A stretch of 64,000 nt of DNA from Armatimonadota bacterium (GCA_016190935.1 JACPPP010000046.1:20317-84316); one strand, 5' to 3'; positions 1,798-40,274 are shown, counted from the stretch's first letter. Program-made: numbers and translations. Notes: generated by a model not told the origin, from the sequence alone.

Positions 1798-2530
1798 ATA
1801 CTTTCACCAGATGCTTGAACAGAGCCGCCCGGCTCGTTCTGATCCTGCTCCTGGGTAACTCCTTGGCCTCACCCACGGCTCTTCTCAGCAACCGCTCCGG
1901 GTATGCGTTGGCGTAGAGGCGGTAGATTGACAGGTTGCCTTTGTCATTCAGAGCTTCTGACAGGTCTACTGCAAGAAGATCCTCCCTCGTCCGGGGTCTG
2001 AAGACAGGTTGTGCTACGGCATTCCCAGTCATATGCATCTCGGCCTCCTCGGTGCTCTTGGTAGTAACTATTGATCTATGGTTATTGTTTGTGTCCGCTG
2101 GTGTTACAGATGGATCCCGCTGATGCGACAGTGAGGTTCCTCCACTGATGCAGCGCAGACGAAGGAGTCGATAGACGTGTGGATGACCGGCACCACGCCT
2201 GTCCACACTTATCAGCTTATGGTCTTTCAGCGCCTTGATCGCCCGGTTGACTGTTGCCCTGGAGCATCCGAACACCGTGGCTATGCGCTTCTGCGAGGGG
2301 AAACACGACTGAGCAGGACCTGTGAGCGATGCCAGGTAGTTGTAGACCGCCACCCCGATGGCCCCTATCTTCGGAACGTAGTGCTGGATGAGGGCCCGGT
2401 CTATCCAGTACCAGTTGCCGTCCCTCAAGTTCCTGACTGCGTGCTCGTCTGATTGTGTTTGACTCCCGCAAACAGTTCGCCACTCGGTGTCACCCTTGGC
2501 TTCGCCGTTGTTTGGTCGACCAATGATCAT
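1763..2530 (-). CDS. Winged-helix DNA-binding protein, replication-initiator/DnaD-N-terminal-like (phage/plasmid replication organiser-like)
   Basis: Segment GVAVYNYLASLTGPAQSCFPSQKRIATVFGCSRATVNRAIKALKDHKLISV is a typical wHTH of replication initiator/replisome organiser proteins. The ORF-track start at 2761 gives an Arg-rich N-terminal extension that looks non-coding; internal Met at 2530 preferred. Confidence 0.4.
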   Translation of the reverse strand: MIIGRPNNGEAKGDTEWRTVCGSQTQSDEHAVRNLRDGNWYWIDRALIQHYVPKIGAIGVAVYNYLASLTGPAQSCFPSQKRIATVFGCSRATVNRAIKALKDHKLISVDRRGAGHPHVYRLLRLRCISGGTSLSHQRDPSVTPADTNNNHRSIVTTKSTEEAEMHMTGNAVAQPVFRPRTREDLLAVDLSEALNDKGNLSIYRLYANAYPERLLRRAVGEAKELPRSRIRTSRAALFKHLVKVYARESNDNNGN

Positions 2531-2627
2531 CCCTTTACTCCTAACCGCCTTAACGCCCCGGTCGAAACGCGAAAGGCACCTCGGTTTGCTCGTGGATAAG
2601 GCCCTCCCTCGGACTTGCGGCGCGCAT

Positions 2628-2915
2628 CTATGCGTCTCGCGCCGTATCGGTTCCGCAGATCGCCGTCTCGCAGCCAACGATCTCATCCGCCAGGTCGGAC
2701 CGCAGCTCGTCGTAGATGACATCGACACAACTGCGGTACAGCGCGGCCAGTCTGAGCGCATTGGTGGTGTCCGGCAGACAGGTTCCGTTCTCCCATCGGG
2801 AGACTATGCTGCTGCTGCTCAACCCCAGGGCTCGGGCCACATCCTTCTGGCTGAGACCCCTCTCCCTCCTATACCGCTTGAGGCGATTGCACACAAGTGG
2901 TGGTTTCATCGGCAT
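2628..2915 (-). CDS. XRE-family (Cro/CI-type) HTH transcriptional regulator
   Basis: MPMKPPLVCNRLKRYRRERGLSQKDVARALGLSSSSIVSRWENG is a classic HTH_3 motif. The upstream part of the track ORF (to 3377) is judged non-coding. Confidence 0.6.
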   Translation of the reverse strand: MPMKPPLVCNRLKRYRRERGLSQKDVARALGLSSSSIVSRWENGTCLPDTTNALRLAALYRSCVDVIYDELRSDLADEIVGCETAICGTDTARDA

Positions 2916-3576
2916 TCCTCGGTGCGGTTCACAAGGAACCAGCTTTGGCCATAAGCTACCAGAGAACCCGAGCCTGTACAAGGGGGTAAGAATTGCGCTA
3001 GACGGCAAGACGCTCTTGCCGTCTAGCACCGCTTTCCCTGCAAGTCGCCTGGGGCAGCTTCTCGTGTAGCCCGGCCCCCGCGAACTCTGGACGTCGGGCA
3101 GATAAGGAAGAAGCCAAGATCGGGCAATCGTCGGACTTAGGGACTCAGATCTAGCGACCACCCGCTCGCCGCAGTGAGACATATACGTAGAACACGTCGT
3201 CGAGGTCCGCGTTGCGCCGGACTGCACGGCCTTCTGCGTTTCGCTGACGGCCTGCTCAGGGCCATCGGAGAGCACTGCGGGATCTGGGACATAAGGCGAT
3301 TTCCATCCGGACCAATGGTGCACGCGGAAGCCCGTTTTCGCGACAGGGGATACCGCCAGAATGAGTCTCATTGGCATCAGTGCCCGGCTTGCGGGGCAGA
3401 AGGCAGCACGGACGTGTCGTTAGCGGCGAAGCAGCGTTCTGCCGTTCTGCCAGGCCGAATTCCGGCCGCCGGGAACAAGCCCAAGGGTTTGTCGCGATGC
3501 TTCCGCTCTGATGCGCCAGCTCGGACTCATCGCACTAACCAGTCTAGCACCCACATCCGCGTAACCAAACACATTT

Positions 3577-4362
3577 TCACGTGCATTCCTCAAAGCTGAT
3601 TCCCGCGAACCTGAATACGCGCAGTGAGTTTGACCGGACAATCTCCCACATCGAAGTTGGCTTTTCGGATAGCAGAACCGCCAACTCCGCCACCATGCGA
3701 GCTGTCTCTAGTGGAATCGAGCAGTTGTGGCCTGCCTTCATTAACGGGGAATCGGTTTCTGTTAGTATTCGATCTCTCGGTAGACTTTCTATCAGTGTTC
3801 GCCCGCGATCGGCAGTCAGCATTGCTGGATTGATTGAGAAGTAACAGCCAGTATCCCCTGCTCGTACAGCTTCCGCGACCGAGCCTGAAAACCAGTGCAA
3901 AATGCAGATCACATCTTCAGGAGCGGTATGTCCCTTTATCAATGATACAGTATCACGCGCCGCGCGCCGGCTGTGGACACTGACGACGCGACCGCCATAC
4001 CGTTGGGAGGCCGCGAGTGCACGCGCGAAGACGTCTTTCTGCCGCTCGTAGCTGCTGCGGTGTTGCGGGCTCCCGTCCAGTCCAACTTCGCCGACCAGAC
4101 GAGATTCGCCAATGTATTTCTCGAGCATGTCAATCTCTGCATAGCCCTCCGCGACGAGCTCTGGATGCAATCCAACTGCCGCATGCACATAGCGGCTGTC
4201 TTGCATCCAGAGTCTGTTCTGAGGCCAAGCGCGCGCCGTCGTCGTCACGGCAAGCACGGCGATCCGTTCCTGATCACAGCGCGCTATAAGTGCGGCCGGG
4301 TCGGGATGCAGATCGATGTGGCAGTGGAAATCAAAGCCCTTGACGGTCTCATCTCTGGTCAC
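3577..4362 (-). CDS. qatD: QatD, TatD-family metal-dependent hydrolase/DNase of a Qat anti-phage system
   Basis: N-terminal FDFHCHIDLH TatD motif and downstream conserved His/Asp/Glu pattern. ATGA overlap with the upstream QueC-like gene. Confidence 0.8.
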   Translation of the reverse strand: MTRDETVKGFDFHCHIDLHPDPAALIARCDQERIAVLAVTTTARAWPQNRLWMQDSRYVHAAVGLHPELVAEGYAEIDMLEKYIGESRLVGEVGLDGSPQHRSSYERQKDVFARALAASQRYGGRVVSVHSRRAARDTVSLIKGHTAPEDVICILHWFSGSVAEAVRAGDTGCYFSINPAMLTADRGRTLIESLPRDRILTETDSPLMKAGHNCSIPLETARMVAELAVLLSEKPTSMWEIVRSNSLRVFRFAGISFEECT

Positions 4363-5720
4363 GCTGTCTCTATCACCACATGCTCAACTATTGCGCCCAC
4401 TTCGGCGATGCCCCTGCGAAAGACTGCCGCGTACTCCGCGATTTCCGTCGCTGAATAGTCGGAGAGCGGCCCTGTCTTGTGCACCAGGATTTCTGCGAGA
4501 GCAGGAGCCTGTGCAAGGCGACGGCTCATCATCTGTAACGACCTCACGTCGGCTGATTCAGCCTGCCTGGCATCAAGGGCACGCTCCTTCAGGTCAGGGA
4601 TGAGGTATCTGGTCGGGTCATTGCCAAACGCCGCATGGATCGAAGCGCGGCGGATGAGGCACGGCACACAGTATCCGCAGTGACGTGGGGAAAGTCCCTT
4701 CCACCGCCCCTTCACGATGGACGAGCATGAGACCGTGATATCCATCGCTTCCCGCAGAAGAGCCTCATTGCGGCACTCGGCAAGCATTTCCCCCTTTGTT
4801 CTGAACCGATAGGGGTTCAGTAGCCGCGCGCCCAACCCAAGGTTATTGATAAGCTCCTGCCAGCGCGTCATGTAGAACGGGTGTGTAGTCCGCGTGCTCC
4901 ACGCTCCTAGCCGCAACGGATCGAGCGGAACATTCAGCGAGATGAGTCCGTTCTCCGGGACAAAGATCGGTGTCACGCCTTCCAGTGCACTTGCGGCCAG
5001 GCTAGCGAGTGCAAAGAAGATAAATGAGCGTCCCCGTGTAGTCGTCTCGGTCCCCATGTCCGCCATGTCATTCCTGTCAAAGCTCACATTCGCACGGACA
5101 CGCCGCGGACCCATATCCCCATAAACTTTGCCGAGCCTTGCCGCACAAGTCTCTTGGCTCTTGGTGCTCGCATCTCGGTAGTGACTGACGAACAGGGGAT
5201 TCCTTCCGGCTTCGAGAAGATCGATCGCGCCAACAAAGCTATCGAGCCCTCCCGAGAACAAGGAGACGCTATCAAATGTTGGACTTACCGGCTCAGACGG
5301 CCTGTCGATTAGCGTATCTATTTCCTTCTGTCTTGCGCGAAAAGAGACCCGCCAGATATCACCCGTGAGGAATTGCAGAATCCGCTCAATGAGATCGTCG
5401 TCCGCAGACCATCTTTCCGGTTCGGTCACGGGAACATAGAGATCGATCTCTCGCGTCCAACTGTCCTGCGCATCATCTGCCCGCGAAATCCGCGTGTCCG
5501 CTGCCGTGACAGTCGCGGCCAGGATTGCAAGATCGATAGCAGCCTCGGGCGGATACATACCGCGGTGGGCGAGCTGACCAAGCATCTGGCCGATCCCGTG
5601 ACCCACGCGGCGTTGTCCGTCGACGAAACGCAGCTCTGTGATCTGCGAGGATCTATCGCTGACGCGAACATTGTTCGTGTCGGCTGGGTTCAGCCGGACG
5701 ACTATGCTGTGACGTTTCAT
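4359..5720 (-). CDS. qatC: QatC, QueC-like PP-loop ATPase (7-cyano-7-deazaguanine synthase-like) of the Qat system
   Basis: SLFSGGLDSFVGAIDLLEAG PP-loop (SGGxDS) and C-terminal Cys cluster CGYCVPC typical of QueC. Start taken at internal Met 5720, which forms an ATGA overlap with the upstream gene stop. Confidence 0.8.
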   Translation of the reverse strand: MKRHSIVVRLNPADTNNVRVSDRSSQITELRFVDGQRRVGHGIGQMLGQLAHRGMYPPEAAIDLAILAATVTAADTRISRADDAQDSWTREIDLYVPVTEPERWSADDDLIERILQFLTGDIWRVSFRARQKEIDTLIDRPSEPVSPTFDSVSLFSGGLDSFVGAIDLLEAGRNPLFVSHYRDASTKSQETCAARLGKVYGDMGPRRVRANVSFDRNDMADMGTETTTRGRSFIFFALASLAASALEGVTPIFVPENGLISLNVPLDPLRLGAWSTRTTHPFYMTRWQELINNLGLGARLLNPYRFRTKGEMLAECRNEALLREAMDITVSCSSIVKGRWKGLSPRHCGYCVPCLIRRASIHAAFGNDPTRYLIPDLKERALDARQAESADVRSLQMMSRRLAQAPALAEILVHKTGPLSDYSATEIAEYAAVFRRGIAEVGAIVEHVVIETA

Positions 5721-6594
5721 GTTTCCCGGTCTCCCAGCACTTGCAGAAGGTTCCATGCGTCCAGATAGGTTCTGTCTACGACCTCACGGACTCCTTGATC
5801 CGACATGTTCGATAGCTGCGTCAGGTCTCCCCCAAAGGAGTCCCGCACGCTCCTCTCAATGTAACCCCTGAACTGCTCATCGAACCCTTGGATATCACCG
5901 AGGTCTTCGGCCAGGCTGAATCCGTTCACGCCAATCTCCTGATAGAGCCGCGCCTCGACGGTGTGTGCGACAAAGCTCAGGAAGATTTCCTGTACCTGTT
6001 CCGTTGACAGCGTCCCGAGATTGTCAATCCCAAACTGGTCCAATGCTGCAATCGTCTCCAGCCACGCATCCCGCGCGATTGCCTCATCGACGAGGCCACC
6101 GTCACGGCAGACGACCTCCGTCAAGCCGATGAATACGTCCTGCACACCTTGGCCCGACAGGCTTTCGAGGTTGAGTTGGCGCAGAGTCTCCTGCACTCCA
6201 TCGCGCTGAAAGCCCCGGAAAACGCCCAGTACATTGCTTGCCGCCGCACGCGATGGTCCCATGCGTCGAACCGCATTTCCGCTTCCGCCCGTGCCGCTGC
6301 GGACGTAGTCACGTACTGCTCTTCGAAGGCCCCTCCGTCGCTGCCGCCGGAGCCAGCGAACCGCGAGAAGTTCGACCGTGCGCTCCTGAAGCGCTCCGGC
6401 TCGGCAGGCGGCGGTAACAGCGGCCGCTTGTCGCTATCCCGGTCGCCGGGCGGGGGGACTTGACCGTCTGAACCGTCATCCGGTGTTTGCGAGTCATCAC
6501 CGCCGGGCAGCGGATCCGTGTCCATCCCGTCGAGCCAACTCGGCACGAGCGGTGTGTTTGATCCGGAGCCGGACGAAGAACCAGACGTCCCCAT
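5717..6594 (-). CDS. qatB: QatB-like protein, apparently split by a frameshift (track ORFs 6121-6594 and 5717-6262 in different frames)
   Basis: Start ATG at 6594 overlaps the QatA stop (ATGA). The N-terminal part is a Gly/Ser/Pro/Asp-rich low-complexity region; the C-terminal part (MGPSRAAASNVLGVF...helical) continues in another frame. The canonical Qat system has four genes, so two ORFs here suggest a frameshift (real or sequencing error). Confidence 0.45.
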
Positions 6595-8528
6595 CAGCCT
6601 GTCCCCTTCCCAAGTGCGGGCAATGCTGCGGATGCCGCTTGCTTAAGGAGCTTGTTGTCCTCCTGGTTTGCCCATCCCTGCACCACGTCCTGGAGTTCAC
6701 GCTTCGCCTTCTCTTCCGTGACAGATCCGCTCCAGCCCTTCACAACCCAAAGTCCCAGCCCCCTGGGATCAAGGCTGCCCAGCAGTTTCACGACTTCGCC
6801 CTGAAGCCTTGGATGATGTTTCGCGACGATCGACAGACCACCGATCCCCTGCGGTTCCTGCGTAAAGCTGCCGGCACCGAGAACCCGCTCACGAAGCGCC
6901 GCAAAGACGTTTTCAGCATCTCCCGGTGTGAGCGCTTTGACCTCAGCTTCGGCGGTTCGGACTTCCAACTGTGAGCCGCAGAGCTTTGCAATCAAGGCAT
7001 CCAGTCCGCTCGGTCCGCCAGCACTGGTCAGCAAGCGCTTGTCGCGCGCGACGAAAATGTAAGGACGCAAATCAGTGTCGCCGACCTGAGGCTGAATCGT
7101 GAGCCAGCGTTTGAGCCAATCACGCTCAAGCCATTTCTCTATCCCCGGTTCCACGGAGACCTTGTCAGTGGCAGTGTCTTTACCAGGCATCTCGTGCTCC
7201 GTGCCGTCGCGAGGCTCTTCTGCGAACCTTTCGAGGGCAACGATATCCCCCGCTTTGCCGTCGCCAGACGACATCGCCTGTGCCGCGACATGTTCGTAGA
7301 AATCGGGTTGGAAGCGTTCCGCCAGCATCAGCTTGGCCAGCACGGGCCGGCTCACCAGTTCATCGAATCCCCGGGCGCGCGCAATCAACTGCCGGAGCAA
7401 CAGCGCATTCAGGAATCGTTTGACCTGCCGCGGATTCCCCTTGGTCCCTTCCGCCAGGATGGGTGCTATCTGGTGCGCTAGGACGAACGCCGCGTTCAGC
7501 TCTTCGACTCTGGCGGGGTCCGTGGCCTGGACATCGCTTTGCGGAAGGTCCGTCCCGAGCCAAGGCTTTCTTAGACCCTCCTTCGCCTTTTCGAGCAAAA
7601 TGCCGAAGCCAGGATGATCTTCGCCGACAAGACTCTGCAGGAGCAGCAGCAGCACGTAGACACGTGTTTCCTGCGCGCCCAATGACGGGATTCGAAACGG
7701 TACTTGGATCAGCTTCTCAAGGTAGTTTCGTGCATACGGTAGTGGTCCGGACGCTGCGGGCAGATCAGGAAAGTGCTGCCGCACGGCGTATTCGATCATC
7801 GCCTCATCGGCGCCGATAACGAATGCGGTCTTTGGAACGAACAGAAACAGCCGAATGGCCTCCAGCGTTTGGATAGCAGTTGCCGGAAGACAGCGGTCGA
7901 GATCGTCGATCAAAACCACGAGCTGACCGATCTTTGCTTGGTCGAGCAGTTCCTGAAACTCCTGACGGAACGCGTGGATCGTTTCCGGCAGGTTGTCACC
8001 GTCCTCCGCTGGTTTCAGGAAGCCACCAATCGCCTCTAGCTGCGTCCGCACATCGGCAGGGTCGATATCCGCGACATTCTGAACCACGTTCTGTAGAGCA
8101 GCGACTGCACTGCCGATCTGATCCGGGGAAGGTAGACCCGTGAGGACATTGAACGCGCCGCCGCCGCATCGTTTCGCAACTTTCAGCCAGTCGACCCGCC
8201 TCAGCAGTCGGCCCGCCACCTCCCTAACCTTCCCTATGGTTGAGCGCTGTCGACACAGCTCCGTGATTGTGGACTCAATGAGAATGGTCTTCGCATCATC
8301 GAATCCTTCGAACGTCCAACCATTGAACCAGAGGACCGCAACATCCCCATCTTCCGCCAGCTCGCTTTCAATCATTTTGAGGACGCTTGATTTGCCTGCT
8401 CCCCAGTCGCCATGGATTCCGATAGTCACCGGACCGCTGCGGTTGACCTTTAGAATCTCGACAACAGTCTGCGAGATTGCCTCACAATTCAGGTAATCAA
8501 CTTCCGTCTCGTAATCTGGAATCAACAT
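6594..8528 (-). CDS. qatA: QatA, KAP-family P-loop NTPase of the Qat system
   Basis: Walker A in VTIGIHGDWGAGKSSVLKMIE and Walker B VVLIDDLDRC. The long helical C-terminal region is typical of KAP NTPases. Start chosen at Met 8528 (MLIPDYETE). Confidence 0.8.
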   Translation of the reverse strand: MLIPDYETEVDYLNCEAISQTVVEILKVNRSGPVTIGIHGDWGAGKSSVLKMIESELAEDGDVAVLWFNGWTFEGFDDAKTILIESTITELCRQRSTIGKVREVAGRLLRRVDWLKVAKRCGGGAFNVLTGLPSPDQIGSAVAALQNVVQNVADIDPADVRTQLEAIGGFLKPAEDGDNLPETIHAFRQEFQELLDQAKIGQLVVLIDDLDRCLPATAIQTLEAIRLFLFVPKTAFVIGADEAMIEYAVRQHFPDLPAASGPLPYARNYLEKLIQVPFRIPSLGAQETRVYVLLLLLQSLVGEDHPGFGILLEKAKEGLRKPWLGTDLPQSDVQATDPARVEELNAAFVLAHQIAPILAEGTKGNPRQVKRFLNALLLRQLIARARGFDELVSRPVLAKLMLAERFQPDFYEHVAAQAMSSGDGKAGDIVALERFAEEPRDGTEHEMPGKDTATDKVSVEPGIEKWLERDWLKRWLTIQPQVGDTDLRPYIFVARDKRLLTSAGGPSGLDALIAKLCGSQLEVRTAEAEVKALTPGDAENVFAALRERVLGAGSFTQEPQGIGGLSIVAKHHPRLQGEVVKLLGSLDPRGLGLWVVKGWSGSVTEEKAKRELQDVVQGWANQEDNKLLKQAASAALPALGKGTG

Positions 8529-8970
8529 GGAGACCTCACCGCCAACACGTACCTCGTGCTCACTGCCCTCTGCATCCAAACTAGGCCTGTCATCAAGTCT
8601 TCTCAAGCGACGGTTCGCTCTACACCCATTGTAGGATAAGCGGTGAAGCTGCTCGCCATCAACGCCAGCGCGACACTCCATCCGCTCTGAGCCGTACTCT
8701 AGAGCCTATGCATACGAGCGCTACTATCAGACCACCAATTGTATCATTCGCAGTCACATTCTTCCAATCCGAGCGAACCCAAGGATGTGTCAGCCGGGTA
8801 ACGGGCTCGATCGTTGCTGATTCGTCGTCGCTGGAGCTACATCGAGCCTGGGGAGAGGAGCAACCTCGGTCCACGCCCCGCTTGCACGCCAGCCTGCGTT
8901 TCTGCTATACTTTACCGACCCACAAAGGACGTTATGATGCACTATCCGATACAGCAGGAGGCCAGCAGTC

Positions 8971-9955
8971 TTGGCTACCGAAATCACTCCTTTCACCGGC
9001 AACGCCCTTGCCGGAAGGCACACTTTCATATTGCCTCGGGTCATCCAGGATGCCGGCGAGGACGCGTCCAGGCGGTTCCTGGAGTTCTTCACCGCAGATA
9101 TCAGGAATCCCAATACCCGCCCGCCAGGCATATGCCCGTGCCACAAGGGACTTCTTCCTCTGGTGCGAAAGGCACAGGTTGTCTCTGCATCAACTTGAGC
9201 CTATGCTCGTAGCGGCGTATATCGAGGAACTTCAGAGGTCTCAGTCCGCACCGACAGTGAAGCAGCACCTTGCCGCTATCCGGATGCTCTTTGATTACCT
9301 GGTGGTCCGCCAGGTAATCCCAATGAACCCGGCTGCATCAGTCAGAGGACCGAAGTATGTCATCAAGCGTGGAAAGACTCCTGTCCTATCGGCTACCGAC
9401 GCCAGGCGGCTCCTCGACAGCATCGATGTGTCCCAGGTGGTCGGGCTCCGCGATCGCGCGCTTATAGCTCTCATGGTCTACTCCTTTGCCCGGGTCAGTG
9501 CAGCAGTGAATATGCGCGTGGAGGACTACTACGCCAACGGAAAGCGCTGGTGGATCCGGCTTCACGAGAAGGGGGGCAAGTTTCACGAAGTCCCCGTGCA
9601 TCACAATGCTGAGGCCTATCTGGACGCTTATATAGCTGCTGCCGGCATCAGCGATGACCGCAGGGGTCCGCTTTTCCGAACTGCTGAAGGAAAGACCAAA
9701 GTGCTAACGACCCGCGCGATGACCAGGAACGATGCCCTGAGGATGATAAAGAGGAGGGCTGCAGACGCAGGACTCGCTGTTAACATCTCCTGCCACACAT
9801 CCCGGGCCACCGGGATCACTGCCTACCTGGAGAACGGCGGGACTATAGAAAACGCACAGGCAATTGCTGCGCATGAGTCTCCACGGACAACCAAGCTCTA
9901 CGACAGGACAACTGACCAGATAACGCTTGATGAGATCGAGAGAATAACCATATAG
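8971..9955 (+). pseudogene. Tyrosine recombinase/phage integrase (XerC/D-like) with an apparent +1 frameshift near 9118-9124 (extra C in a cccgcccgcc run); TTG start at 8971 preceded by aggagg
   Basis: Frame 1 from 8971 gives LATEITPF...RRFLEFFTADIRNPNTR, then stops at 9198. Frame 2 from 9122 continues RQAYARATRDFFLWCERHRL... through the catalytic region (R...HxxR...Y: HTSRATGITAYLENGGTIENAQAIAAHESPRTTKLYD). Joining the two after deleting one C gives the canonical ...NPNTRRQAYARATRDFF... motif. Confidence 0.6.
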
Positions 9956-10000: not shown

Positions 10001-11506
10001 TCACCGCAACATGAAAGACGGGGAGTAGCTTGGCTGTTGGTCTTCCATCAACTGTATCTCCTGACACACCGCATTGAACCGGTGGCCTAGAAAGCATGCG
10101 CCACTCAGCGGACCGAAGTAGTAGAGCAGCAGCTTCGTGGCACGCCATCTGCGCACAAACGCCCTTACCATATCCTTAGCCTCATCCGCAAGCGCAACCA
10201 GGTCTCCTGTGCTACGGATGCAGTCTCTACCCAGCTCGCGCTCAGGCCGAAGCAGCAACAGCGCTGCTATCTCCTCACTGCGTTCATGAAGATGCTCCCG
10301 CACTGCGTCGTCGATGGTGCCAGTCACACTTATACCAACGGCCACTGTCGTTCCGCTTCCATCAATGATCTCACCGTCGAAGTTACTCCCCTGATCGCTG
10401 ACTATCACCCTAAAACCATCGGCCTTTCGATCACTCGTGCGCCAAAGAACTCCGTTCTGGTCCACCTCAAGCGTGTATCCGGCTGCATCTCTGAACATAT
10501 GGCCAAACGCAAACCACGCGGAGAGCCTCGCCTTCCCTCGCACCCTGATCAGCCTCATGGAGGTAGACGCGCCCAGCTCGCACTTCAGCCTCTCCAACTC
10601 TGGCAGAAGGTGCTCATTCCAATCATACTGGGGCTGAAGTTGCCGACCCTTGGCGGCTGCACTACCTTCGAAGTAGTCGCACCAGTCGATCACGTAGTCG
10701 GGCTCAAGCTCATACTTCTCACGTACAATCGTGTTCAGGTGCACCGTGATGCATGGTTCCTGGCCTTGGGGCAGCAGGAGATCGTGCTTTCTCACAAGTT
10801 CATCCAGGTCATGCAAATACATGTCCTTCTTACTGGCCTTGATCCATTCCCTTACGATGCTCACGGCCAGCAGCAGTGCATCCTCATCTGGCCTCAGCCC
10901 AAGGCTGCACATCCGCTCGGCCACCAAATCGCGTAGGTCGTCGGCACCTGTTGAGCCGATCTTGAAGCGGATGCAGCCGGCAAACTCCCTCAGCTCGTCG
11001 GGACCGGCATCCAAATGAGAAAGCCAGTTCCCGTGTACCTCAGAATGCTCTTTGTGCTCAAAGAAGCTGGCTTTGATGCCTCCGTTTTCGTCCACGCAGG
11101 CGGTGAAGAACATATCATGTCGATCCCATGTCCAGTTGCTAACCAGATATAGTTCAATCGGGCCGGGCTTCGAGTCGCGTAGTAGCTTCCACGACCGCCA
11201 AAACTTCTGCAGTAGGCTCGATCTTTCTCTGGTGCGAGCCATCAGGACATCGCTGGAATACTGATTCCTTTGGTCCACGTGATACTTGATCTGGTAGAAC
11301 CGACTCGGTTTCAAGGTCTCAGGCTCGTACTCAATGGTAACGTCGTCCATTGATCCGGCTTCGGCATCCTCGATGCAGACTCGTCGGACCATCCTCTGCG
11401 GCATCTTCAGCTCGAGAGCCAACCACCAAGCGTAAAGGTGCTGATAATCATCGCCCTTTAGCCGCGCGATGACTTGATTCGCCATGTTATCCTCCATTCG
11501 GCGCAC
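10001..11506 (-). CDS. cap4: Cap4-like CBASS effector: N-terminal DUF4297-type restriction-endonuclease-like nuclease domain fused to a C-terminal SAVED domain
   Basis: C-terminal LLLYYFGPLSGACFLGHRFN resembles the SAVED/CHAT-like terminal motif. N-terminus has GDDYQHLYAWWLALEL...IEDAEAGSMDDVTIEY...QIKYH, consistent with DUF4297-like nuclease. Sits immediately downstream of a CD-NTase. Confidence 0.65.
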   Translation of the reverse strand: MRRMEDNMANQVIARLKGDDYQHLYAWWLALELKMPQRMVRRVCIEDAEAGSMDDVTIEYEPETLKPSRFYQIKYHVDQRNQYSSDVLMARTRERSSLLQKFWRSWKLLRDSKPGPIELYLVSNWTWDRHDMFFTACVDENGGIKASFFEHKEHSEVHGNWLSHLDAGPDELREFAGCIRFKIGSTGADDLRDLVAERMCSLGLRPDEDALLLAVSIVREWIKASKKDMYLHDLDELVRKHDLLLPQGQEPCITVHLNTIVREKYELEPDYVIDWCDYFEGSAAAKGRQLQPQYDWNEHLLPELERLKCELGASTSMRLIRVRGKARLSAWFAFGHMFRDAAGYTLEVDQNGVLWRTSDRKADGFRVIVSDQGSNFDGEIIDGSGTTVAVGISVTGTIDDAVREHLHERSEEIAALLLLRPERELGRDCIRSTGDLVALADEAKDMVRAFVRRWRATKLLLYYFGPLSGACFLGHRFNAVCQEIQLMEDQQPSYSPSFMLR

Positions 11507-11518
11507 ATTTTGGGCGCC

Positions 11519-12424
11519 TCACGATAGCGGGAACAACGGGCCAAACAGGTCTCGCCACGCCCTTAGCGCCTCTCCGTTCTTCCCGCTCTTTTCCAACTGA
11601 ATGGCCTGCGCAGCCGCGTATTGTGCATTGAGAAGCGCGGCTTTTGCCTTCTCGCGCTGCGAGTAGTCCATGCTATCACTTACCGCTGGCCCCAGCCCGG
11701 CAGGATCCGGCCATTCATCATGGATGCGGTCAGCAAGGGATGCGAAGAAGGACTTCATCTCATAGCGGAAATCGCCCTGGAAGCCGCCGTAGAGAACCTC
11801 CAGAGCCATAACCTCAATGAGGAAAGACGGTTTGATCGGCTTGCCCTGCTGGCTGTTCCACTTCTTCATCATACGGACGAGCCCTTTCCATTCTCCGGAA
11901 TACGCCCGCTGTGCCTCCACAGCCTTGTCGTAGTGGACCCTGGGGTTTGTCTTCACCCAGTCTGCCGTGATGGTGTCAGGGATATCGTAGTAGTCCTCCA
12001 GAGAAAAAGCCGGCACAACATCGAAGCTCATGACCTTACCATCTGTCTCATCGTCTACTGCCTGTACGCCGAAATCCACCGTTACTGACCGGCGCTGGCA
12101 GCTCACCCGGTTCGCGCCGTACTTGTCCGCGAGCACGTCACGAACCGCGCCGAGCACCTCAGACGGCAGGCTATCGCGGTAATGCCGTTCTTTCTCCCCG
12201 AGCACACAGAAGATGTCGACATCCTTCAGAGGCTTTGTTTTCGTCCACCTTGCATAGGAGCCTGTGAGGAAATCGTGCTCGATGTCAAAACAGCAGTCCA
12301 GGTAGCTGCGGATCTCCTTCTGGCGCCGCGAAGCATCTTGCTGCTCGCGGTCGCTCAGCTCAAGGCGGCTTCGGAGTGTTCGGAGAGCATCCGCTATGGT
12401 TATCATTGTTACACCCTCCTCCAA
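11519..12424 (-). CDS. cGAS/DncV-like nucleotidyltransferase (CD-NTase) of a CBASS system
   Basis: Nucleotidyltransferase signature GSYARWTKTKPLKDVDIFCVL (GS...DhD), about 300 aa. Operon context with TRIP13-like and SAVED proteins. Confidence 0.8.
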   Translation of the reverse strand: MEEGVTMITIADALRTLRSRLELSDREQQDASRRQKEIRSYLDCCFDIEHDFLTGSYARWTKTKPLKDVDIFCVLGEKERHYRDSLPSEVLGAVRDVLADKYGANRVSCQRRSVTVDFGVQAVDDETDGKVMSFDVVPAFSLEDYYDIPDTITADWVKTNPRVHYDKAVEAQRAYSGEWKGLVRMMKKWNSQQGKPIKPSFLIEVMALEVLYGGFQGDFRYEMKSFFASLADRIHDEWPDPAGLGPAVSDSMDYSQREKAKAALLNAQYAAAQAIQLEKSGKNGEALRAWRDLFGPLFPLS

Positions 12425-12909
12425 TAACCGGCTGACGCACTCAACCCGCTTCCGTCCACGGTCGTGCCTATGCTCTGCCGGACCAGTCCATCAGTAGATC
12501 GCAGTGTGGTGCTGCTCCAGCCGGATACGTCAGCGCGACCTGGCTTCGTGCTCGCGACGATCCGGTAGTCGCGGCTGCTGGGCCAGCATCCGGCTTTGAG
12601 AATGTGGTATTTCAGATCATCGGTATCGACCCAGAATGCGCCGTCACCGGTAAAGCTGTAGCAGATCGTGAAGTCCCATCTGCAGACGAGCCTGTCCGTT
12701 GACGGATTGAACACCTCAAGTACCAACTCAGTCAGGTCCCTGGTCTCAAGCCACCGCCTGAGGCCCCGTTCCAGCACAACCCACTCACCTGCCATCTTCT
12801 CCGGGCTGAGTCCGCTGGCGACGATGATGTCTTTCAGAGACATCAGCAGCTTGTCCGCGACATACGTCACGGAATGTGTGTATGTGTTTACCATAACTAC
12901 TGTGCTCAT
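12409..12909 (-). CDS. Small protein, putative bacterial HORMA-domain protein (Cap7/Cap8-like) of type III CBASS
   Basis: 166 aa, beta-rich. Assignment is by size and position between CD-NTase and TRIP13-like ATPase; no diagnostic motif recognised. Confidence 0.35.
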   Translation of the reverse strand: MSTVVMVNTYTHSVTYVADKLLMSLKDIIVASGLSPEKMAGEWVVLERGLRRWLETRDLTELVLEVFNPSTDRLVCRWDFTICYSFTGDGAFWVDTDDLKYHILKAGCWPSSRDYRIVASTKPGRADVSGWSSTTLRSTDGLVRQSIGTTVDGSGLSASAGYWRRV

Positions 12910-13373
12910 CGTCTGAAGAACGCCTCCTTACTGGCCACCGTATTCGCTTGGGTGGCATCCCGGCCTTTATCCGGTACGGCCTCCGCCAAATCGCGTGCGC
13001 TGACCCTGACCGAGCGCCGCGTGAGAGCAGCCTGAACCCATTGGAGATCCTCCGTTGGGCAGGGCAAGGACATGTGCCAATCCCCATCTGTTGGGCAAAA
13101 CGGAAGCGCCGACTCGCTGGCATCTTCGCCGGACACGGCGTCTTCGCCATAAAGGCAGTAGATCCGCACGCGGGGCCCGCTGCCCCATAGCACGATGGGC
13201 GCTTCCTTCATAGCTTCAGAAGCGATCAATGAGCTCGCTATTCCCGCGACGCCACTCAGTTCATCCCTGGCGTTGTTCGCGGACGCTGGTGCGAGCAGAT
13301 CGGCTATCGCAGCCCACGTATCTGCCGCAGACCGAACTGGCGACGAGATCACCCGCCTTGCTATTACTGTCAT
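12906..13373 (-). CDS. Small protein, putative second HORMA-domain protein of type III CBASS
   Basis: 155 aa, immediately downstream of the TRIP13-like gene with a 4-nt overlap. Assignment by context only. Confidence 0.35.
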   Translation of the reverse strand: MTVIARRVISSPVRSAADTWAAIADLLAPASANNARDELSGVAGIASSLIASEAMKEAPIVLWGSGPRVRIYCLYGEDAVSGEDASESALPFCPTDGDWHMSLPCPTEDLQWVQAALTRRSVRVSARDLAEAVPDKGRDATQANTVASKEAFFRR

Positions 13374-14350
13374 CTTGTCTCCTCCTGGATACCAGCAGAG
13401 ACACCCTTCTCGTGCTGCACAGCTCGCAGTAGGAGCTCCGCTGTCAGTCTGTTGGGGTCCAGAGCCGTCTCTTTGTCAAATGTGCACGCCGCTGGAACAA
13501 TCTTCCTTATGCGGCGACCATCAAGCCCCACGCACAATTCCGCCGCCGTCCTAAAGCGGGAGTCCGACAGGATCTTGCCTGCCCCTGTATAATGCTTGGC
13601 CAGCGCCTGTACCGCATCCGTTAGGATCTGCGTGCAAGCCTGAGCGTTAGGCATTCCGATGTTCAGGACTAGGTCCGCCCGCGATACGAAAGCAGCATCG
13701 ATAGCCCGGGGGAAGTTGCTAGTAGCGACGAACAGCAACCGAGGGTACCGCGCAGCCAGTTGGTCTAACTGAGCCAAGACGGCGTCGGTAGCACGATGCA
13801 CGTCAATGGGGTTTGCCTCTAGGCTCAGTTTGCTTCTATCGGCGGCAAGCGTCTCCACCTCGTCCAAGAGCACCACCAGCGGACCGCGTAGTGCCGGCTC
13901 CGCTATCGTGGTGCCCAGCAACTCGGTTACGGCTCTCTGGCTCTTGCCCAAGGCGGCGCTCGCTAGGGCGTGTGGTTCCACCTCAAGATAGGTGAAGTTC
14001 GAGTTCTTGCCGAAGACCTCAGCCGTCCTGGCGGCAAGTCCGCGCGCAAGCGATGTTTTGCCGGTTCCGGGCTCGCCTACCAACAAGATAACCCCGTGCA
14101 ACGGGATTGCAGCTTTGTCCACGGTAGGACGCAGCGTAAAACTCAAGATAGCCTGGCTGAGTAGCCGGTCCTTGAGCTGTTGATCCACTATGATCGAGTC
14201 CCAAAGCTTAAGGAACTCGCTATCGGGGAGCAGGCGGCTATCCAGAATCCCCTGGGCCTCTACACCCCCTGACATTGCTCCTGATTGCGCACCAGGTCGG
14301 GTGCGCCCCGTGCCAGGCGCCACGCCTGGCCGAAACCCGTTACTATTCAT
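13370..14350 (-). CDS. TRIP13/Pch2-like AAA+ ATPase (Cap6-like) of type III CBASS
   Basis: Walker A HGVILLVGEPGTGKTSLARGLA, Walker B VVLLDEVETL, sensor region FVATSNFPRAIDAAF. Start chosen at Met 14350, preceded by a ggaagga RBS on the coding strand. Confidence 0.75.
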   Translation of the reverse strand: MNSNGFRPGVAPGTGRTRPGAQSGAMSGGVEAQGILDSRLLPDSEFLKLWDSIIVDQQLKDRLLSQAILSFTLRPTVDKAAIPLHGVILLVGEPGTGKTSLARGLAARTAEVFGKNSNFTYLEVEPHALASAALGKSQRAVTELLGTTIAEPALRGPLVVLLDEVETLAADRSKLSLEANPIDVHRATDAVLAQLDQLAARYPRLLFVATSNFPRAIDAAFVSRADLVLNIGMPNAQACTQILTDAVQALAKHYTGAGKILSDSRFRTAAELCVGLDGRRIRKIVPAACTFDKETALDPNRLTAELLLRAVQHEKGVSAGIQEETR

Positions 14351-14466
14351 AAGTGTCTCCTTCCCGGAGCAGATGCTTGCGGTGTGGCCGTCACCCCACA
14401 CCGCTTGTCTACTCGCGGCCATTTGCGTTGCTACTCAACGCAAGCGTTTATTCATAAGAAAACCGC

Positions 14467-15051
14467 TCACCATGCATGCTGGACCGCCATGTCGCCCAAG
14501 CGGTAGTGTAACGCGGTGAAGCTCACGCCGATGGATTCGGCGAGCCGTCGGAACCCGGAAGAAGTCTGGACATTGTAGCACGGAATTGCCTCCTGCAGCA
14601 GGTCCTTAGGCATCAGAAGCCTTGCCGCATAGCGATCTGCCGCAGACTCCTTCATGTCGCGGTCTCCGTCCCTGCATATGATCCTCGTGTCTGAGTCTCC
14701 GAACAGGAGACCTTGACTCAGGACGGCCTGGTTCACGTGCATCTGCCAGTGTCCGATCTCGTGGGCGATGGTGAACCTCTGCATACCTGGACAGTCATCA
14801 AAGCTCTGAAGGTAGTTCTCGTTCAGATATACAGTCCTCTCCACTGGGAAGAGCGACCCCAGAACCGACTCTCCCAGAGGGGACAGGTCTTCGTACACAA
14901 GCGCCAGATCAAGAGTCCGTTCCAGTATTGCCTCCACGGGAATGGGCAGAGCAGGAGTCCAGTCATCCTTGCGCGCATGAAACCTTATCAGCTCGTAGGC
15001 TTTCTGCTCTAAGACATTGTTGCTGAACGGAACGTCAAGATTCTTGAGCAT
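14467..15051 (-). CDS. capP: CapP-like ImmA/IrrE-family zinc metallopeptidase (CBASS regulator)
   Basis: HEIGH zincin motif in FTIAHEIGHWQMH. Paired with an upstream XRE HTH gene in front of the CBASS operon. Start at internal Met (MLKNLDVPF). Confidence 0.7.
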   Translation of the reverse strand: MLKNLDVPFSNNVLEQKAYELIRFHARKDDWTPALPIPVEAILERTLDLALVYEDLSPLGESVLGSLFPVERTVYLNENYLQSFDDCPGMQRFTIAHEIGHWQMHVNQAVLSQGLLFGDSDTRIICRDGDRDMKESAADRYAARLLMPKDLLQEAIPCYNVQTSSGFRRLAESIGVSFTALHYRLGDMAVQHAW

Positions 15052-15400
15052 CGTCCTTCGTCTTCTCCATCTCTTCGTCGAGTATCTCCTTTGCTTTGGA
15101 TGGCCCGTGATCTTTCCATGCCCGTAGCAGTCTGGTGGCCTCGGGGTTGCTGACAATGAACTCATGTATCGCAGCATCTACCTTGTTCGCCAGCGCCAGA
15201 AGCTCATCAGCATCCAGTTCCAGGGTCTTGGAGAGCTTGAGTATCACTTCCTCCGATGGTGGTGGAAATCTCCCTGTCTCGACTTTGCTGAGATAGGTGA
15301 AATCAATGCGAGCGGCATCCGCCACTTCCCGCAAACTCAGCCGCAACTCCTTCCGGCGGTCTCTTATTGTTGAACCAAAAGTCGGCTCCATCAGCTTCAC
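15035..15400 (-). CDS. capH: CapH-like XRE-family HTH regulator (CBASS regulator)
   Basis: TFGSTIRDRRKELRLSLREVADAARIDFTYLSKVETGR is a classic HTH_3 motif. Immediately upstream of, and slightly overlapping, the ImmA-like peptidase gene. Confidence 0.7.
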   Translation of the reverse strand: MKLMEPTFGSTIRDRRKELRLSLREVADAARIDFTYLSKVETGRFPPPSEEVILKLSKTLELDADELLALANKVDAAIHEFIVSNPEATRLLRAWKDHGPSKAKEILDEEMEKTKDDAQES

Positions 15401-15464: not shown

Positions 15465-16484
15465 TCAGGTGAGTCTGCGAAGGCATGAGGCCAGTAGCGA
15501 GAGCAGTTCAGCCAGCCTCAGCACTGCCTTTTCTCGGATCACCAGCCGCTCGCCCACTCTGTAGGCCCTATCGCCGGTCTTGTCGATGTATTCCTGATCA
15601 ATGATCCCGTCCTTATGCGCCAGTAGATGTCGCTGCTGAAAGTATCTTACCAGTTCCTCAAGATCCGGCCTGGGGACGAGCTCGTCATAACCTTTACCAG
15701 CAGCCTTCCGCCACAGATCGCTCGATTCCGCAATACTCTGGAACACATTCTTGCGGCGCTTGAAATGGCTGGCAGTGGGAAGCAAGTCGAAAGTAGCCTC
15801 GGCGAATCGCTGAAAGGCCGCAACGAGTTTCGTGAAGGACTCCTCCAACATCAGCCGCTGCACGTTCTCAGCGGTATCGCGGTCCGGCATTGACTGTCGG
15901 ATATCTGGGATGTGCGCCACAGTCTTTCTGACGGCATCTACGGCCACCTCGAACATAGTCGCAGCGGAATTGTGGCCACAAGCTGGACAGAAGAAAGCTG
16001 CGCCAAAGGCCGAGTAGCGGCAGTGGCAGCCCTCGCATTCGAATCTCTGCCGCATCATCTCCGCAACTTCGTAAGGCACTACGACTTGCCTTGGGCCCGG
16101 TTTGTAGGACATAGACATTGTGATGAACCCACCGCGCGGCTGCGACCGGTTGAATGACTGTGTATCACGCCGCAGGGCCTCTCCGAGTTGGTCGCTGATG
16201 TAGCGGAAAGCGTAGTCCCGGATGTACTTGTTCTGCTGCTTGGTGTTGAAGGCGCTCGGGTCCGATTTGCGTCCGCAGATAGGACAGTAGGCTTCCTCTT
16301 CGGGCACCTTCTCCTTCCAGTCGTCCATCATCACCTTGAACTCACTCTTGCACCGTGAAGACGGGCACTTCCGGTCCAGATAGCCGTCATCGTCGAGTGG
16401 CATTGGGATGGGAGCGCTCACACTGTCACCCCATTGGCGGAGCAGACGCTGCGTCTGATCGAACATAGCTGCCTCCTGAGCCAT
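15465..16484 (-). CDS. Double zinc-ribbon protein with C-terminal alpha-helical domain carrying an HEPN-like Rx4H motif (QRHLLAH); function unknown
   Basis: Two CxxC...CxxC clusters (CPSSRC...CPICG; CEGCHC...CPACGH), then a helical C-terminal half with RHLLAH. Overlaps the upstream GHKL gene by about 40-59 nt, suggesting translational coupling. Confidence 0.35.
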   Translation of the reverse strand: MAQEAAMFDQTQRLLRQWGDSVSAPIPMPLDDDGYLDRKCPSSRCKSEFKVMMDDWKEKVPEEEAYCPICGRKSDPSAFNTKQQNKYIRDYAFRYISDQLGEALRRDTQSFNRSQPRGGFITMSMSYKPGPRQVVVPYEVAEMMRQRFECEGCHCRYSAFGAAFFCPACGHNSAATMFEVAVDAVRKTVAHIPDIRQSMPDRDTAENVQRLMLEESFTKLVAAFQRFAEATFDLLPTASHFKRRKNVFQSIAESSDLWRKAAGKGYDELVPRPDLEELVRYFQQRHLLAHKDGIIDQEYIDKTGDRAYRVGERLVIREKAVLRLAELLSLLASCLRRLT

Positions 16485-18459
16485 TCTTCTCGTCAGTAAT
16501 CAAGCACTCTGGTATATGGTCAGAGTGCCGTCTGCGAAGGTACTGCAGTGCCGTCTCGCAGTCCGGTTGGTACTGGAGATGGTCCTCGTAGAACTTGAGT
16601 CGTGCTTTGCAGTCCTCAATGACCTGGCCCCATGTCTTCACCCAGATTCTGGTCTTGCCATCGTCGCTCTCGTATAGCAGTCCCAGCGGCTTGTCCTTCT
16701 GCCGCGCCATCCGTTGCACCGGATCTGCGATCTCGTTCGAAAGCAACCAGAACACCCAGCGCGTGCCAGTATCTTTGAAGCGCTCGTCGGCTTCCACGGC
16801 AAATGCGTAGTCCTGAATCTGGGTCATGGCCTTCTGATCGATCTTCTTCCTCGGTGCCTTGAGCTCTATGACCAGGTGCTCCCGCTCCTCCACCCGAGGC
16901 TGAGGCACACGCCGCGAGAGCATTAGGTCCACTATCCCCTTGCTGCCGTCGGCACGCAGCACCGGTGCCGCGACCTCATCCTTACGCCCCAGCAGTTTCA
17001 GGTGCTTCCTCAGCACTTCATCGAGAGACTGGTCGTCAACGCTGAGGTGGAACTCCTCGCCGAAGATCCAAGTGTGGTCCGCAAGCACTCGGTGCAGCTG
17101 GCTTCGCTCCCGTAGAGCCTCTTTCGACGCGGGATCGAAGACGAGGATCTCAAGCCCCCGCAGGAAGTTCAGCCTGTCGGCGACCGTCTTTGCAGCGTTG
17201 ATAACGGCGGCAAGGCTGGTCTTCCTAAGCAGTTCGGCCAACTCGGCCACCTTCGCCTGGGGGAGGTCCAAGAGTTCTTGGACGACTTTCAACGTCTCCT
17301 CGGGCCTCTCTTCGAGGGTCTCCCGCAGCAACCGCAATTGGAACTTCCTGGTCTTCTGTTCGGAGCTGTCGAATTCCGGGAGGTAGTTGCTTATACTCGC
17401 AGCGCAGATATCAAAGACATCGCGTCTCGCCTGATCCAGTGGGCCGGTCGGTTCGTCTGGATAAGGATAGATGCCCTCCTGCTTCCACTGCTCGATGATA
17501 TCTGCTGACTTCTCGGCCTCTTTCGACCGCAGATAGCTTCGAAGGGTCTTCCTCGCGGATTCGACGAGAACCCGGATACGCGGGTCGAGCTCCAGAAGCT
17601 GCAGCGCATTCTCATCTACGCTGTCCTGTATAAGCTGGCTCTTCAGGTAGGCTGTGAAGTTGGCAGTCGAGGAGACGCCAGCGGGTATCTCATCCCTGGC
17701 GACGCCATTGGTATCGCAAAGCAGAATTCTCTTCTCCGTCTTGAACGCCCACTCGATAACGGTTAGCATCGGATTCTCCCCTACCAGTTCCGCCAGCTCC
17801 GGGATGGCAACCTCCAAGTTGCACTCGCTGACAATGGCGTGGAAATAGTCAACGGGACGGCCATCGTAGACTATGGAGACTCCAGGGTAGTTGCGCAGGT
17901 AGAGCGCGAAGGTCTCCGTTATCTCGGCGATCGCGTCCGGCTGTGTAAGCGACTCGAACTCCCTTCGCAGATTGGTAATCCGCACGGCAGTGCCCGTCTT
18001 ACGGTGGCCGTCGCGCTGAGGGTCCTCAAGCCTGAACTCCGCCAGCCTATCGAAGTTGCCATGGATGCGATAACTAGATAGCGCACCGTTGTCTGAGTAG
18101 TTCGTTTCCCATATCACGCTATGTCCCAGCGTGAACGCCCGGAACCTGCCTTTGCCCGCTTTGCCGTGCAGTATCCGCTTGTGCCGTCTCGACTTCCGGC
18201 CCGGCCGCTTCCATGAGCCGCCCAGATTGCCGAAGGCATCGTCCGCCTCAGCATAGGATATGCCGTGTCCGTCATCTGTGACAACTATCTCGTCAATAGC
18301 GCCCAAGGGAGAGCGGGCAAATTCCACAGTCACTAGCTCAGCATCGGCATCAAGCCCATTCCAGATCAGCTCAGCGATAGCGTGGATGGGTTTGGCACCC
18401 CCGACCACTCTCTGAAGGTAATCATCCTTGACCTGCACCTGTAACGTCTTCATCCACAA
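16426..18459 (-). CDS. MORC/paraMORC-like GHKL (Bergerat-fold) ATPase fused to a C-terminal PD-(D/E)xK restriction-endonuclease-like domain
   Basis: N-terminus IHAIAELIWNGLDADA...IVVTDDGHGISYAE matches HATPase_c (N-box and G1 DxGxG). C-terminus GIVDLMLSRR...EHLVIELKAPRKKID fits a D...ExK nuclease motif. Confidence 0.6.
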   Translation of the reverse strand: MWMKTLQVQVKDDYLQRVVGGAKPIHAIAELIWNGLDADAELVTVEFARSPLGAIDEIVVTDDGHGISYAEADDAFGNLGGSWKRPGRKSRRHKRILHGKAGKGRFRAFTLGHSVIWETNYSDNGALSSYRIHGNFDRLAEFRLEDPQRDGHRKTGTAVRITNLRREFESLTQPDAIAEITETFALYLRNYPGVSIVYDGRPVDYFHAIVSECNLEVAIPELAELVGENPMLTVIEWAFKTEKRILLCDTNGVARDEIPAGVSSTANFTAYLKSQLIQDSVDENALQLLELDPRIRVLVESARKTLRSYLRSKEAEKSADIIEQWKQEGIYPYPDEPTGPLDQARRDVFDICAASISNYLPEFDSSEQKTRKFQLRLLRETLEERPEETLKVVQELLDLPQAKVAELAELLRKTSLAAVINAAKTVADRLNFLRGLEILVFDPASKEALRERSQLHRVLADHTWIFGEEFHLSVDDQSLDEVLRKHLKLLGRKDEVAAPVLRADGSKGIVDLMLSRRVPQPRVEEREHLVIELKAPRKKIDQKAMTQIQDYAFAVEADERFKDTGTRWVFWLLSNEIADPVQRMARQKDKPLGLLYESDDGKTRIWVKTWGQVIEDCKARLKFYEDHLQYQPDCETALQYLRRRHSDHIPECLITDEKNGSGGSYVRSDAASAPPMG

Positions 18460-18709
18460 TCACCTCCACCCGCCACCGGACGTGCTCTTGCGCTAGTGCT
18501 GCCCTAAGCCTACAGCTCCCCCCGAAACGTCTTTTCTAGCAGTGCCGGCAAAGACGCGGTGCATAGCGCCGAGGCCTGTTCTCGAATCTTCGCTATCTTC
18601 CTCCTGCGCAAAGGGCAGTGTTGCTGGCTCGCAATACTTCATATTTGTGTTGCCAGCGGTAGCCAAAACCGCACACCGTGCTCCCGTTTCCGCTAACAGG
18701 GATGGGATG

Positions 18710-19909: not shown

Positions 19910-19918
19910 CGAGCACTG

Positions 19919-34614: not shown

Positions 34615-34682
34615 AGCAGTGGTTCCTTCCCGCAATTCACAGACTTCCGCCCGAATGCGAGGCTGATCATCTGGAGGCAAGG

Positions 34683-35042: not shown

Positions 35043-35299
35043 AGGGGCCTCCGTCTGGTTAAGCGTCCTCTCCGGGCTCAAAGAGGACGCGAGGCTGATA
35101 GCAGGGGACGAGCCTAGTGAGTACATGATGTATATCATTGGTCGGAGTCATTGTCAATAGCGGTGCAGTTACCCCCTTGGGCCCCTGGGCAAGCAAGTTG
35201 ATTTCGTTTCCGGCGGTGTGCTACTATCGATAGGCTTGGGAAGCTGGCGAAGGACGATCTGACTTCGTGATAGAGGGGAGTCGTCGGGAGGAACCAACA

Positions 35300-40194: not shown

Positions 40195-40274
40195 TTCGGT
40201 TTTTCCTCCTTGCATAAAAGAATCGGGCCGCCCGAGTTGAGCGGCCCATAGAGTTACGGTTTTGTTTGCCTTAC

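Follow-up and report, generated by a model that had tools for sequence, protein, structure and literature searches.

The window analysed here is a stretch of 64,000 nucleotides (nt) from an uncultured Armatimonadota bacterium, and our subject is the locus at positions 3577–8528 on its minus strand. This locus is a QatABCD anti-phage operon by descent, lying within a defence island, in which qatB as deposited lacks one base. QatABCD is an already known system, reportedly going back to work by Gao and colleagues in 2020, and the locus is an ordinary additional operon of this kind. Its genes and features are as follows, with lengths in amino acids (aa).

6594–8528, minus strand: qatA, a KAP-family P-loop NTPase, 644 aa from ATG 8528, with Walker A GDWGAGKSS
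5717–6594, minus strand: qatB as a whole, broken by a 1-nt deletion; one added base gives a 292-aa protein
6331–6594, minus strand: 5′ part of qatB in the original frame, residues 1–88, with MGTS, PLVPSW, the G/S/P/D-rich tail and the first ~22 residues of the helical domain (RFRSARSNFSRFAGSGGSDGG)
6325–6336, minus strand: frameshift site, GGA GGG GC- CTT C, with a base lost from the Ala89 codon beside a G4 run
6121–6327, minus strand: out-of-frame run-on of the N-terminal reading frame, residues 90–157 (FEEQYVTT...RTYSSA) and stop at 6123–6121, without homologue
5717–6328, minus strand: 3′ part of qatB in the shifted frame, residues 90–292, the remaining QatC-docking helical domain, recognised by tblastn, PADLOC and NCBIfam
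4359–5720, minus strand: qatC, a QueC-like PP-loop enzyme, 453 aa, with SxGxDS (SGGLDS), CxxCxxC (CGYCVPC) and an upstream Cys
3577–4362, minus strand: qatD, a TatD-family nuclease, 261 aa, with a GTG start and the HxH motif FHCH
8738–8767, minus strand: weak candidate promoter upstream of qatA, sigma-70-like (TTGGAA-18-TACAAT with TG), given for its position only

Five consecutive open reading frames (ORFs) occupy the minus strand across 3577–8681 (6594–8681, or 6594–8528 from the inner ATG; 6121–6594; 5717–6262; 4359–5720; 3577–4362), all of them where an earlier note on this DNA had put them. Families were assigned with PADLOC profiles, NCBIfam equivalog models with curated cut-offs, and Pfam. 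All four Qat families score above their curated cut-offs, and the genes follow one another co-directionally as A-B-C-D with overlapping stop/start junctions, which is the canonical order that the note had recognised; the motifs that it had read, GDWGAGKSS, SGGLDS, CGYCVPC and FDFHCHIDL, are each present in the sequence. QatA matches its PADLOC profile over 1–640 of 646 positions (E 2.8e-250), Pfam KAP_NTPase at 1.1e-44 and NCBIfam NF041923 at 802.7 bits against a cut-off of 600. The NF041923 alignment runs end to end (1–628 of 628) from ATG 8528, which bears out the start chosen in the note, and GGTGAGG stands 7 nt upstream of this ATG. QatC covers 1–450 of 453 PADLOC positions (E 1.5e-178) and scores 515 with NF041925 (cut-off 280); the PP-loop, SxGxDS, the Zn-binding CxxCxxC and the N- and C-terminal extensions are all found, the motifs having been compared with those described for QatC (PMC13639016). 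QatD likewise shows the TatD nuclease family and its HxH motif (PADLOC E 1.6e-84; Pfam TatD_DNase 1–253 of 253; NF041926 281, cut-off 230).

The gene junctions are less uniform than the earlier note had them, with ATGA throughout. Only qatB/qatC is joined by ATGA (5720–5717), whereas qatA and qatB meet in TGATG, where the qatA stop TGA (6596–6594) has one base in common with the qatB ATG, a 1-nt overlap at 6594, and qatC/qatD is joined by GTGA (4362–4359), whose GTG is the qatD start. These overlaps of 1, 4 and 4 nt are identical in the related operons L002, L003 and L007 (contigs identified below), so the tight coupling is real and conserved and the motif variable. A scan for promoters and terminators gave nothing above chance, with one sigma-70-like site in the region and 1.8 expected, and in megablast no plasmid matched the operon.

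The two ORFs between qatA and qatC encode parts of one protein. The N-terminal ORF (6121–6594, 157 aa) matches the PADLOC QatB profile over positions 1–112 of 294 (E 1.4e-20), the match ending at residue 109, and the C-terminal ORF (5717–6262, 181 aa) over 112–291 of 294 (E 2.3e-55; PDLC02211 E 7.4e-56; NCBIfam NF041924 155, cut-off 100). Profiles, alignment and tblastn thus agree with the earlier note that a frameshift splits qatB, the downstream ORF being the C-terminal domain of the same protein. A search with the repaired QatB returned 650 homologues, and lengths and conservation were taken from the best 120. These are mostly single proteins of 285–297 aa (116 of the 120 measure 280–300 aa), and none natively ends near residue 157, as would be expected if the downstream ORF were a gene of its own. 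The repaired QatB, at 292 aa, has the length of its closest relatives (84% identity). As written, both parts are present and conserved but in different frames, and no ORF spans the whole protein; the single polypeptide that characterises QatB, with an MGTS/Gly2 tail and a helical docking domain, is not encoded here, and would be if the missing base were an assembly error.

The 5′ part retains the columns that are invariant in the homologue alignment (M1 G2 T3 S4, L16–W20, R68 F69, F79 A80, S82–G84 and D86). Its low-complexity tail consists of 67% G/S/P/D, against 29% in the remainder, so that the extreme composition remarked on in the earlier note stands; its extent does not, since the tail, with its length taken from PMC13279940, comprises residues 1–66 of 292, about a quarter of the protein and not the N-terminal half. 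Mapping onto QatB chains in the PDB, for example P. aeruginosa QatB, places the beginning of the ordered domain near residue 67, and the repaired protein matches these chains across the helical domain (9zee_A, E 1.3e-43; 9vll_A, E 2.1e-47). The 68 residues with which the N-terminal ORF ends (90–157) align with no homologue, and the same DNA read in the other frame is conserved QatB. In that shifted frame no ATG, GTG or TTG occurs from the preceding stop to 6262, and the first start codon, ATG 6262, is the conserved internal Met112.

The point at which the frame switches can be read directly from the alignments. In tblastn searches with ten homologues, the high-scoring segment in frame −2 covers residues 1 to ~89 and ends at 6328, and the one in frame −1 covers residues 88–291 (6334–5723) at 69–85% identity. 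Every aligned homologue runs on through ...FAGSGGSDGRALRRAVRDYVRSGTGGSGNAVRRMGPSRAAAS... in one frame, and the window keeps to them as far as SDGG in the first frame, then picks up the shared sequence again in the second, from LRRAVRDYV on. When the DNA is aligned with that of L002, L003 and L008, one column is gapped, and only in the window, which reads GAC GGA GGG GC- CTT CGA where L008 has GCC CTC. Because of this single-column gap, the lesion is a 1-nt deletion, at 6328–6330. The original was probably GCC CTT, with a CCC run shortened to CC next to the G4 run; an in-frame version at 6325–6336 would be GGGGCCCTT, and the strings that would tell the alleles apart at the site are GGAGGGGCCTTCG and GGAGGGGCCCTTCG. 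The switch, at 6328–6334, lies 67 nt upstream of ATG 6262 and so outside the 142-nt overlap of the two ORFs (6121–6262) that the earlier note had described, but just within the range 6120–6340 that the note had marked for inspection. A frame plot of GC content at third codon positions was also tried for locating the switch and was uninformative at 57% GC.

What would the loss of this base mean for the system? Three papers from 2026 define the QatBC core (PMC13279940, PMC13376578, PMC13639016) and describe QatB as an all-helical domain after a disordered tail of 30–90 residues that starts with MGTS. The 1:1 complex of QatB and QatC is enough by itself to protect against some phages (PMC13279940). 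The QatB tail lies in the QatC active site (PMC13376578), with Gly2 there after removal of Met1 (PMC13376578, PMC13639016), an NDG-modified GTSKAY peptide from the QatB N-terminus has been detected, and the E. coli QatB residues in contact with QatC are 138–218 together with A6 in the tail (PMC13639016). Defence is abolished by deletion of qatB, by G2D and by deletion of tail residues 16–22 (PMC13279940), and is crippled by an N-terminal tag, G2D or deletion of residues 14–20 (PMC13639016).

In an intact system of this kind, Gly2 of the MGTS sequence would be carried on a long disordered tail tethered to the all-helical QatC-docking domain, and the tail would enter the QatC active site to be modified there in a deazaguanylation-like manner, with QatBC as the minimal defence unit (ALTERNATIVES). 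Through the deletion, the docking domain would be cut off from the acceptor tail, residues 1–66, which keeps only the first 22 residues of the domain. The product of the first ORF would consist of the tail, ~22 domain residues and 68 nonsense residues, and mapping of the window's QatB onto the PDB chains places the QatC interface wholly in the shifted-frame part. This docking domain would be translatable only from the internal Met112. The sequence upstream of ATG 6262 is cggaaatgcggttcgacgcATG, with no Shine-Dalgarno motif at −5 to −10, and the ATG lies inside a stretch that is translated in the other frame. Ribosomes on the N-terminal ORF would stop at 6121, ~400 nt before qatC, and because of this early stop the ATGA/GTGA coupling to qatC and qatD should be lost. 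The QatBC core should be dead as written because the MGTS tail is severed from the QatC-docking domain. The published mutants (G2D, the tail deletions and the qatB deletion) lead one to expect no activity from the split allele, and the operon is probably inactive, unless the base was lost only in assembly.

The reading that we consider the likeliest, and hold with moderate confidence, is that this QatABCD operon carries a very recent null allele of qatB. Of the 80 positions with conservation of 95% or more in 116 homologues, the repaired QatB departs from the conserved residue at one, by a conservative I to V, and the median homologue at two; qatB shows no decay since the lesion. In the whole 64-kilobase (kb) window, qatB is the only broken gene seen among ~48 ORFs, several of which encode 860–1344 aa, and eleven defence genes nearby match their profiles over almost the whole length. 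Since the repaired QatB is undecayed and all other genes seen in the 64 kb are unbroken, the base was either lost very recently or dropped in assembly. Elsewhere in the window there are 19 homopolymers of 6–7 nt, several of them inside the spans of intact long ORFs, so nothing suggests that the assembly is generally prone to homopolymer indels. The sole broken gene together with these intact homopolymer-bearing ORFs favours a real mutation, and we infer that the base is missing from the organism as well as from the record.

Several points weigh against this. The deletion, as read from assembled sequence, may be a consensus or assembly error, and an error too would leave the gene otherwise undamaged, just as it is here. 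From SRR12113390 there is an independent Logan assembly that agrees with 2381–5866 at 100% identity but ends ~460 nt before the site; stopping short in this way, it neither confirms nor refutes the deletion, and neither qatB fragment is on record from Logan. Moreover, the loss of function is argued from mutants of the E. coli and P. aeruginosa systems.

It is possible, if doubtful, that the organism's qatB is intact at 292 aa, that QatABCD is fully functional and that the gap is confined to the deposited contig. The sequence comes from a metagenome-assembled genome, in which mixed strains can give consensus indels, the site lies within a G4/C2-3 run, and the Logan assembly did not yield the same two ORFs. 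At conserved sites nothing sets the repaired gene apart from functional homologues, and the other qat genes and the coupling junctions are all intact. Against such an error speak the integrity of every other gene in the 64 kb, the longer homopolymers within intact ORF spans, with no sign of systematic indels, and the fact that 5.8 billion clustered proteins hold no intact copy above 87% identity. A second homology search centred on the site likewise gave nothing above 87% identity, and when the repaired QatB was run against collections of genomes, metagenomes and viruses, one relative came from the first, two from the second and none from the third, with the same strain not among them. Looked up as exact sequences, the 157-aa and 181-aa ORFs, QatA and a neighbouring HORMA gene led to no contig, and QatC and QatD to only one 3.5-kb Logan contig (L001, SRR12113390). 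This contig spans 2381–5866 and breaks inside the 3′ part of qatB, at 5866; low coverage or strain variation in qatB could underlie the break.

Short QatB entries in the databases might seem to offer precedents for a split. Entries of 181–231 aa (P0118, P0126, P0129) start at or near Val94 or Met112, as the C-terminal ORF of the window does, but they differ from it in being gene-calling or contig-end artefacts, or truncations by foreign DNA, and not frameshifts; such entries have mostly been ascribed to misannotated start sites (PMC13279940). Three were tried as split qatB genes and rejected. P0118, on L002 (199 aa, MRDYVR), belongs to an intact 292-aa ORF with MGTS at L002:2645–3523 whose GTG start was miscalled, P0129 on L008 is in frame and cut by the contig edge, and P0126 on L007 is the same sequence as L006, truncated by unrelated DNA without a frameshift. 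The low-complexity tail appears to defeat gene callers. In L006 and L007 the qatB homology starts abruptly at the Val94 codon, and ~104 nt of unrelated DNA lie between that codon and the end of the contig (L006:1–110, JGI Ga0187893_10035067; L007:1–107, ENA ERZ27251177 k141_1376977). Their QatB is 85% identical to that of the window, and the two independent assemblies end at most 3 nt apart. A repeated or mobile element that cut qatB short seems to end at this boundary.

That the split is functional, through −1 frameshifting, two working polypeptides or a G/C run that reversibly switches the gene ON and OFF, seems very unlikely to us. Given how the frames overlap, a −1 shift at GGG GCC would yield a QatB of normal appearance, and the qatB of L006/L007 is also cut, 5 codons downstream at Val94, which hints at a recurrent inactivation target. 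However, the overlap (6440–6115) contains no X_XXY_YYZ slippery heptamer, and the heptamer in a conserved two-frame arrangement that would mark a programmed −1 frameshift is not found, the examined relatives being single-frame; G4/C2 is far below the known lengths of phase-variable tracts. No relative is split, with L002, L003, L005 and L008 in frame at the site and the short entries explained by start miscalls or contig edges, so that the genuine split once entertained in the earlier note finds no support among the relatives examined. The published structures moreover require the tail to be tethered to the docking domain, and the N-terminal ORF bears its 68 unconserved nonsense residues. We see a very slim chance that the single-base gap is real and used, be it as a reversible or population-level OFF switch for a QatBC module that is costly to keep, within an island of several defence systems, or in a two-piece QatB whose free MGTS tail peptide QatC still modifies; if this were true, the L006/L007 truncation at Val94 would mark qatB as a preferred point for silencing Qat. 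Even more improbable is that QatB of this clade ends near residue 157 and that the 181-aa ORF is an independent conserved gene, a scenario which fits the two separate hypothetical proteins in GenBank and the PADLOC and NCBIfam QatB models of the C-terminal ~180 residues only, but which is refuted by the sequence comparison, as residues 90–157 of the N-terminal ORF align with nothing, the other frame of that DNA gives the ALRRAVRDYVRSGTGGSGNAVRRMGPSRAAAS block that all homologues conserve, the homologues have one undivided ORF, and the misannotated starts behind most short entries were verified for P0118/L002.

Whether or not the recent null allele is real, the frameshift is present in the deposited GenBank record, with the N-terminal ORF and the C-terminal fragment as separate proteins, and the record flags nothing as pseudogene or as Qat. 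The annotated products are the following.

6594–8606: QatA, MBI2842117.1, AAA family ATPase, 670 aa, TTG 8606 start
6121–6594: QatB N-terminal ORF, MBI2842116.1, hypothetical protein, 157 aa
5717–6145: QatB C-terminal piece, MBI2842115.1, hypothetical protein, 142 aa, GTG 6145 start
QatC, MBI2842114.1, hypothetical protein, 453 aa, identical to the product found here
QatD, MBI2842113.1, TatD family hydrolase, 261 aa, identical to the product found here

NCBIfam NF041924 and PADLOC PDLC02211 cover only the C-terminal ~180 residues of QatB, and the tail-less 181-aa fragment passes both. Because these models accept the C-terminal fragment alone, defence callers would score the locus as complete, and functional Qat systems can be overcounted in surveys. 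The significance of the locus lies mostly here, in annotation: the public record misses the system, and callers based on hidden Markov models would count a complete QatABCD. If the deletion is real, the locus offers a naturally occurring allele in which the QatC substrate tail and its docking domain are parted, which fits QatBC as the essential core; even then it adds no new mechanism.

The operon lies within a large defence and mobile island that reaches ~52.5 kb. Its edge is probably near that point, because ordinary metabolic genes begin at ~53 kb. No tRNA gene was found anywhere in the 64-kb window. The other features of the island are listed here.

8708–9955, plus strand: tyrosine recombinase/integrase, divergent from qatA and between the Qat operon and the following one
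10001–14422, minus strand: complete type III cyclic-oligonucleotide-based anti-phage signalling system (CBASS) with HORMA/TRIP13, a separate system unrelated to Cap9
10001–11506, minus strand: SAVED-PD-(D/E)xK endonuclease effector of this CBASS
11519–12424, minus strand: CD-NTase cyclase of this CBASS
12409–12909 and 12906–13373, minus strand: its two HORMA proteins
13370–14422, minus strand: its TRIP13 ATPase
14467–15177: M78/IrrE-like peptidase gene, after the CBASS
16426–18459, minus strand: HATPase_c_3 protein with a weak DUF4263/SduA-like match
18710–19909, minus strand: HerA-like ATPase
19919–21046, minus strand: 375-aa ORF, no family assigned
26985–27779, minus strand: SspD, forming with SspB and SspC a DNA phosphorothioation module
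27783–31247, minus strand: SspC
31213–32154, minus strand: SspB
33019–34884, minus strand: large serine recombinase
35267–37912: PHP/beta-propeller protein
40275–41783: McrB-like AAA_5 ATPase, with a 596-aa partner ORF (38644–40434) to which no family was assigned
43369–44673: TrwB/TraG-like coupling protein
46429–49017: Ppl-like PHP-ATPase
50968–52554, plus strand: large serine recombinase, bracketing with the first one the genes between them

The tyrosine integrase ORF begins with ~130 residues that carry no domain, so its true start may lie further downstream. The genes at 16426–21046 are possibly another defence module. Four ORFs downstream of the Ssp genes, including one for a 1344-aa protein (21043–25077), gave no significant family match, and may represent a restriction or sensor component associated with SspBCD.

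How does the locus compare with known systems? Its closest metagenome relatives are L003 (JGI 3300037483, P0001) and L002 (Logan SRR28430723), which are ~80% identical to it in nucleotide sequence from qatA to qatD and likewise have overlaps of 1, 4 and 4 nt and a QatB of 292 aa. They differ in that their qatB is in frame, and in their flanks, L003 having a type I/IIG methylase upstream of the operon and L002 a PIN protein beyond it, downstream. Cap9-CdnD deazaguanylation of type IV CBASS, in which a QueC-like enzyme acts on the N-terminal Gly2 of a docked long-tailed partner (PMC13376578, PMC13279940), is a mechanistic analogue of the action of QatC on QatB, but the qat operon is without a CD-NTase or TGT-like partner. 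The structurally characterised QatBC systems of P. aeruginosa and E. coli (PDB 9zee/9zef and 9vll; PMC13279940, PMC13376578, PMC13639016) have the same families in the same order and have the KAP Walker A, the SxGxDS and CxxCxxC of QatC and the HxH of QatD in common with the window, and their QatB resembles that of the window in its MGTS N-terminus, its conserved P..W and a 66-residue disordered tail. Compared with these systems, the window's operon comes from an uncultured Armatimonadota bacterium, its closest public QatB is only 84–87% identical, and its qatB is broken by a 1-nt deletion at codon 89.

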